From Promethearchaeia archaeon (GTDB lineage Archaea > Asgardarchaeota > Lokiarchaeia > Sigyniarchaeales > SOKP01), in contig JBATUM010000185.1 in NCBI GenBank assembly GCA_049671145.1, positions 1,828-65,827 on the forward strand: 64,000 nt of DNA; not shown here. Direction: 5' to 3'. The text below is the continuation of a report on this DNA, generated by a model with database tools.

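Follow-up and report, generated by a model that had tools for sequence, protein, structure and literature searches.

The toxin domain occurs exactly three times in the window. A six-frame HMM scan recovers CT1, CT2 and CT3, the three related protein ends that the sequence-only reading had regarded as divergent versions of one domain, and every string quoted in that reading is present, at the end of the giant open frame (CT1), within the orphan cassette (CT2) and at the end of the 1,263-aa frame (CT3). The three copies have overall identities of 26-45%; CT1 and CT2 are 39% identical (BLASTP E 2e-16), while CT1 and CT3 are the weaker pair (pairwise E 0.002). Single-sequence scans of Pfam, PHROGs and NCBIfam returned nothing significant for CT1-CT3 or for the putative immunity proteins I1 and I2. 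The description of the family as unassigned is therefore correct for Pfam, NCBIfam and PHROGs at threshold, but a homologue has a solved structure, the CdiA-CT contact-dependent toxin of Serratia marcescens BWH57 (PDB 7M5F, chain C; CASP14 target H1065/T1065s1). In particular, a 52-sequence family profile (A6) matches 7M5F_C over its full length in a search of the PDB (E 4.3e-23, model positions 1-101), and this depth is needed, as CT1 alone reaches 7M5F with E = 1 and a 4-sequence profile does not match it. Word-indexed homologue searches are likewise too insensitive for this family (one match with CT1, five with the family profile); an exhaustive HMMER profile search yields 54 relatives. Moreover, a profile built from distant relatives, with the window sequences excluded, scores CT1, CT2 and CT3 at 84, 90 and 56 bits (E 3e-22 to 3e-13) and 7M5F_C at 92 bits. 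The toxin domain is a new member of a known family, in a new variant carried by an archaeal giant protein without a known secretion system. CT1-CT3 are very probably alleles of the BECR-fold (Barnase/EndoU/Colicin/RelE) family of the BWH57 CdiA-CT, likely RNases, within an Asgard polymorphic-toxin locus that has putative cognate immunity genes and probable spare alleles.

Features of the toxin locus, in window coordinates
Feature	Position	Strand	Size and content	Basis
Giant ORF ending in CT1	101..36973	+	12,290 aa	ORF list, hydropathy scan, Pfam
Conserved pre-toxin junction	36476..36544	+	HFVNFFRLSQLYDEKLFFQLPPG	Sequence, alignment A8, L005 ORFs, DNA alignment
CT1 toxin domain	36545..36970	+	142 aa (aa 12,149-12,290)	Independent profile 84 bits, AF2 pLDDT 89.4, Foldseek 7M5F_C
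I1, putative immunity protein of CT1	37034..37504	+	156 aa; C-terminal motif VAWHPIE	
Acidic ORF between I1 and the CT2 cassette	37591..37941	+	116 aa	ORF list
Orphan CT2 cassette	37940..38494	+	Toxin domain from 38003	Translation; profile 90 bits
I2, putative immunity protein of CT2	38488..38985	+	165 aa; 7-nt overlap with CT2 end	
Third immunity gene, remnant	41204..41539	+	C-terminal half only, ending in LYVGRFDLHAWYPLE and a stop	Translation, alignment with I1 and I2
ORF carrying CT3	41867..45658	+	1,263 aa; frame open from 41807	BLASTP, ORF list, six-frame scan
CT3 toxin domain	45233..45550	+		Profile 55.6 bits; CT3-type homologues P0004, P0006, P0012, P0014, P0035
LRR protein, putative Imm-LRR-type immunity protein of CT3	45729..46568	+	279 aa	Pfam LRR_4 E 3e-38

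The first description of the domain is corrected in three points of boundary and motif. The CT1 domain had been started at 36641; because homology to 7M5F runs from residue 35 on and the structural model has confident N-terminal beta-hairpins, its start lies about 32 residues earlier, at 'TQFTKAKTIG'. The proposed first motif, G-x-x-H-I-x3-(D/H), identified the first histidine correctly and misaligned its final column, where the H that ends 'GIIHIFAGH' in CT3 is a second conserved histidine, aligning with the GH of 'YGHMRDFA' in CT1 and of 'LGHLGDFA' in CT2. Between these two histidines CT1 and CT2 carry an insertion of about 17-21 residues, a count that depends on the alignment, and CT3 is a short-loop variant whose histidines are 5 residues apart; the MAFFT alignment of CT3 was unstable until its flanks were trimmed. 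The second histidine belongs to a further conserved element, GH-x-x-(D/E/Q)-F, which was absent from the original list, and both the helix motif and the terminal strand, G-x-I-x-(T/S/N)-A-(Y/H/F)-P, turn out to be conserved family-wide. In CT3, the domain is followed by a 35-aa tail, conserved in CT3-type homologues, that extends to 45655.

The predicted structure of CT1 has the core layout of a BECR domain. The AF2 model, computed without templates, has a pLDDT of 89.4 and a pTM of 0.83, and places N-terminal hairpins before helices and a 4-strand meander; with only 4 sequences, its N-terminal third was poor (pLDDT 69). The BECR core is defined as a helical segment at the N-terminus and, after it, a meander sheet of 4 strands (PMC3482391), and the CT1 model has these elements in order (helices 70-79 and 84-97; strands 100-104, 110-117, 123-130 and 135-141). 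In a Foldseek search of the PDB, 7M5F_C is the only match at E <= 1e-3 (E 2.2e-4, probability 1.0, TM 0.58/0.68), and a non-enzymatic fold, which would have spoken against the toxin assignment, did not appear among the significant matches. The depositors of 7M5F classed the BWH57 CdiA-CT as a BECR fold and proposed H47, E51, H52 and R89, which its immunity protein contacts, as the active site (PMC8616854).

H47 and H52 of 7M5F correspond to H49 and H71 of CT1, and both are present in all three window copies. The key residues of CT1, in domain numbering, are G41, G46, H49, H71, D74, F75, G134, S138, A139, Y140 and P141. Across the 52 aligned sequences, H49 is retained in 50 and H71 in 51, so that the early histidine first called invariant is near-invariant and the proposed catalytic residues have not been lost from the homologues; retention is similar for D/E/Q74 (50/52), F75 (51/52) and G134 (51/52), and complete for T/S/N138 and A/S139 (52/52 each), bearing out the late T/S-A-Y/H element as family-wide. 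The other two residues of the proposed BWH57 site are not conserved across the family: the equivalent of E51 is G, R or E, and that of R89 is variable (R in CT2, K in CT3, E in CT1). [quoted passage not shown] Position 138 is S in CT1, N in CT2 and T in CT3 (T in 38, S in 8 and N in 6 of the 52 sequences); in 7M5F itself it is Gly, which counts against the preferred explanation.

These conserved positions also bear on whether the domain is active at all. In this archaeon it could be inert and serve a giant surface adhesin as a binding or structural tip, with chaperones or partners instead of immunity proteins encoded downstream, and there are precedents for this in inactive BECR domains such as the C-terminal domain of phage Mu MuF (PMC5512222). 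Proteins with 2-5 tandem copies of the domain also exist within the family (P0009, P0029, P0039), an arrangement that is unusual for a C-terminal warhead and that counts against the toxin explanation, and delivery machinery is not evident near the giant gene. However, all three window copies keep both histidines, D74, F75 and the terminal motif at overall identities of 26-45%, and allelic diversification, when it comes with a cognate gene downstream and with orphan arrays, is the signature of conflict systems, not of adhesins; an inert domain is thus highly improbable.

If the domain is a toxin, its fold and motifs suggest that it is an RNase, as had been guessed from motif order alone when it was likened to small RNase toxins of the BECR type. 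That guess now draws support from the profile match to 7M5F_C, from the position of 7M5F_C as sole significant PDB neighbour of the CT1 model, from the two retained histidines and from recurrent sub-threshold similarity to PBECR1 (Pfam PF18809). Many family members match PBECR1 co-linearly at about 14-23 bits over profile positions ~9-101; relatives score 13.8-23.4 bits, below the gathering cut-off of 27.6 bits, a Pfam scan of 56 members gives a best E of 3.9e-6, and in the window CT3 reaches 13.9 bits (E 0.081) and CT1 and CT2 have no match. PBECR1, the phage BECR-like nuclease 1 (PMC5512222), resembles the window family in its predicted placement of a His within the N-terminal core helix and of a T/S on the last strand, and the window family has weak BFVD structural matches to MuF and 'minor capsid' proteins. 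In contrast, PBECR1 occurs in phage and conjugative polyvalent proteins rather than in cellular polymorphic toxins with immunity genes, Pfam found none of its typical MuF, portal or MPTase fusions in the window carriers or in relatives, and the window family has an extra N-terminal hairpin and a 'WLExGN..GLxHI' extension. Ntox35, a predicted BECR toxin, was considered because it has two N-terminal His and a C-terminal S/T, a likeness that comes from the published description only (PMC3482391); this identity was not adopted, as the Pfam scan of the 56 members gave no family named Ntox at E <= 0.01.

The same family could instead cut DNA or use a different substrate (a nucleotide or a protein, for instance) by re-using a BECR-like scaffold with a new two-histidine site. 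The catalytic residues of colicin E5 have no equivalents in 7M5F, whose activity is 'not easily predicted' (PMC8616854); H49 is not within the canonical BECR core but in an N-terminal extension specific to this family; and Foldseek gives no direct structural match between the CT1 model and the canonical BECR members (RelE/MqsR/BrnT, colicin E5/D, barnase). The literature searched reports no biochemical activity for any member of the family. On the other side, all characterised BECR clades described in PMC3482391 and PMC5512222 are RNases, the pairing of a His in the first core helix with an S/T on the last strand recurs among such RNases, and the repeated PBECR1 similarity also favours an RNase, which makes a different substrate unlikely. 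As an RNase, the domain would most likely act inside a neighbouring cell as a metal-independent endoribonuclease, in which the general acid and base would be H49 ('G-phi-x-H-I') and H71 ('G-H-x-x-D-F'), with the pocket completed by the conserved C-terminal strand N-G-x-I-x-(T/S)-A-(Y/H)-P.

The carrier of CT1 is the 12,290-aa protein, which would be the expressed, membrane-anchored weapon with CT1 at its tip. A basic N-terminal stretch of about 630 aa precedes six TM segments that a hydropathy scan predicts at aa 637-875, and the roughly 9,800 aa that follow have a single Pfam domain, Laminin_G_3 (aa 1954-2117), in a scan that covered aa 1-5000 and the last 3,290 residues. Further hydrophobic segments occur at aa ~10,689, 11,214 and 11,349, and the toxin domain closes the roughly 920 aa that remain; the segments make the topology of the toxin end ambiguous, which again counts against the preferred explanation. 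Searches for an export pathway (T2SS signal, T5SS, T6SS, T7SS, PVC and others) recognised none, Pfam giving only Laminin_G_3 in the scanned parts of the giant protein and only a HerA-like ATPase among the neighbouring genes; RHS repeats and filamentous-haemagglutinin repeats were also not detected in these parts and neighbours. A bolder proposal, which we hold only tentatively and consider rather doubtful, is that the protein represents a 'toxin on a stick' of archaea, with an origin separate from that of CdiA: a multi-pass anchor, then some 9,800 aa of almost entirely unrecognised sequence as an extracellular stalk, and C-terminal hydrophobic segments that could insert into the target membrane and carry the BECR RNase into neighbouring cells.

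The locus, from a Promethearchaeia (Asgard) MAG, has the classic build of a polymorphic-toxin array, made up of toxin-immunity genes, an orphan cassette, an immunity remnant and a 5′-truncated CT3 paralogue. The giant ORF and the 1,263-aa ORF have about 590 aligned residues in common (E 3e-54), yet divergent CT ends: the first ~500 aa of the shorter protein are 29% identical to the giant protein from a point about 1,486 aa before the C-terminus of the latter. Since the 1,263-aa ORF begins in the middle of this homology, it is a 5′-truncated paralogue, or a large orphan module, with a different pre-toxin region and CT3. Large carriers with a variable C-terminal toxin and a common upstream region are found here, as the giant protein and its paralogue, and in the Promethearchaeota loci L004 and L005, which have homologues of the C-terminal ~800 aa of the giant protein. 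Upstream of CT3, a 'GxSM' motif pointed to a self-processing peptidase of the S24/S26 type; relatives score only 21.5 and 18.2 bits against a cut-off of 23.3 bits and the window copy gives nothing, so it was set aside as a lead only.

Each toxin type is accompanied by its own kind of putative immunity gene. I1 and I2 are homologous (28% identity, E 6e-20), and their homologues lie directly 3′ of CT domains in L002, L004 and L005, with a truncated one in L003. I1 has no match in Pfam, PDB, NCBIfam or PHROGs, and a relation of I1 and I2 to CdiI(BWH57) was rejected, as neither has a sequence match to any PDB chain. A hydropathy scan detected no TM segments in the window immunity proteins; I1 is therefore predicted to be cytoplasmic, and such a protein, encoded by the adjacent downstream gene, would shield the producer. 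CT3-type domains are instead paired with the LRR protein. In L001, an independent Promethearchaeota MAG, a 279-aa LRR orthologue (46% identity over the full length) lies directly 3′ of a CT3-type orphan, so that an LRR protein is conserved downstream of this one toxin type in both places, as expected of the Imm-LRR class of immunity proteins already described (PMC3482391). CT1/CT2-type domains are paired with the ~155-aa 'AWHPIE' family, which is in none of the databases searched. The acidic ORF that separates I1 from the CT2 cassette has no family matches.

The junction upstream of the toxin links the carrier to the orphan cassettes. It is kept at the 5′ end of orphans, namely in the CT2 frame (as NFFRSSHSWNLELIYEL), in P0005 and in both L005 copies, and is probably both the boundary and a recombination handle between constant carrier and variable toxin. 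The CT2 open frame begins at the junction motif, immediately 3′ of a stop codon, while the annotated 117-aa CT2 ORF (ATG at 38141, MEHILYD...) starts within the toxin domain; this ORF is identical to NCBI MGB5911332.1, a hypothetical protein of Promethearchaeia archaeon. Orphan cassettes and downstream immunity genes are represented in the window by I1, CT2 with I2, the immunity remnant and CT3 with the LRR gene, and in the L005 array by a truncated orphan stub and a second immunity gene. Rather than silent spares, the small cassettes (CT2 with I2 and the orphan pairs of other MAGs) might be intracellular toxin-antitoxin or abortive-infection-like modules, to which the CT1 end of the giant protein would be incidental: in L002 the orphan pair is part of a toxin-antitoxin island with MazE, PIN, ParE and RHH genes, the ORF calls include several orphans standing on their own, and BECR RNases are common to toxin-antitoxin systems and polymorphic toxins (PMC3482391). 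However, orphan frames begin at the carrier junction motif and lack a start codon of their own, the called ORFs start at an internal Met within the domain and so omit the N-terminal hairpin and the invariant G41 and G46, and the same domain terminates long carriers in the window, L004 and L005. Such free-standing modules are accordingly improbable, and the CT2 and I2 cassette, the CT3 paralogue together with the LRR gene, and the immunity remnant would be displaced or spare alleles. These could replace CT1 and I1 by recombination at the junction (FFRLSxLY...LPPxTxFTKAKTIG) or at the WLELGNQFxGxEHILYD island.

The arrangement follows that of bacterial polymorphic toxins (CDI, Rhs, LXG/WXG; PMC3482391) in its constant giant carrier, variable C-terminal toxin, downstream cognate immunity, 5′-truncated orphan cassettes with a recombination junction and immunity remnants. 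Members of this very toxin family are borne on such carriers, the bacterial relatives being the C-termini of an Rhs-core protein (P0017), of WXG100-type proteins (P0008 and others) and of CdiA. The differences are that the host is an Asgard archaeon, classical polymorphic toxins being rare in archaea according to a review (PMC3482391), and that the carrier has almost no recognisable domains. The nearest system, CdiA-CT(BWH57)/CdiI(BWH57), has a domain of the same family with both proposed catalytic histidines, which likewise forms the extreme C-terminal end of a huge protein of the cell surface and has an immunity gene immediately downstream. In contrast to the archaeal multi-pass membrane carrier, CdiA(BWH57) is a T5SS filament with a CdiB partner; the window has the distinct FFRLSxLY...LPPxT motif in place of a VENN-type junction; and CdiI(BWH57), of 98 aa, is unrelated to either the ~155-aa family or the LRR protein. 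The toxin domains themselves differ by the insertion between the histidines of CT1 and CT2 and by the lack of conserved E51 and R89.

CT2 and I1 are recorded as 'hypothetical proteins'; the toxin domain can now be tied to a family with a solved structure, and the CdiA-CT(BWH57) family comes to span Proteobacteria, Gram-positive bacteria and Asgard archaea. Universal retention is limited to the two histidines, the D/E-F pair and the terminal NG..(T/S)A(Y/H)P strand, which makes them clear targets for mutagenesis, and the ~155-aa 'AWHPIE' proteins, with no match in any library searched, are a possible new immunity family. As no known secretion system was found, the delivery route is a tractable question. 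If the 'toxin on a stick' proposal is true, it would imply a new contact-dependent delivery route in Asgard archaea and an archaea-specific immunity family, together with an LRR inhibitor of an RNase-type toxin that recalls the LRR ribonuclease inhibitor of eukaryotes. Promethearchaeia are the archaeal group closest to eukaryotes and are known mainly for syntrophy. Overall, they appear to run a full polymorphic-toxin economy of carrier, alleles, orphans and two immunity types, and therefore to engage in direct antagonistic cell-cell interactions.

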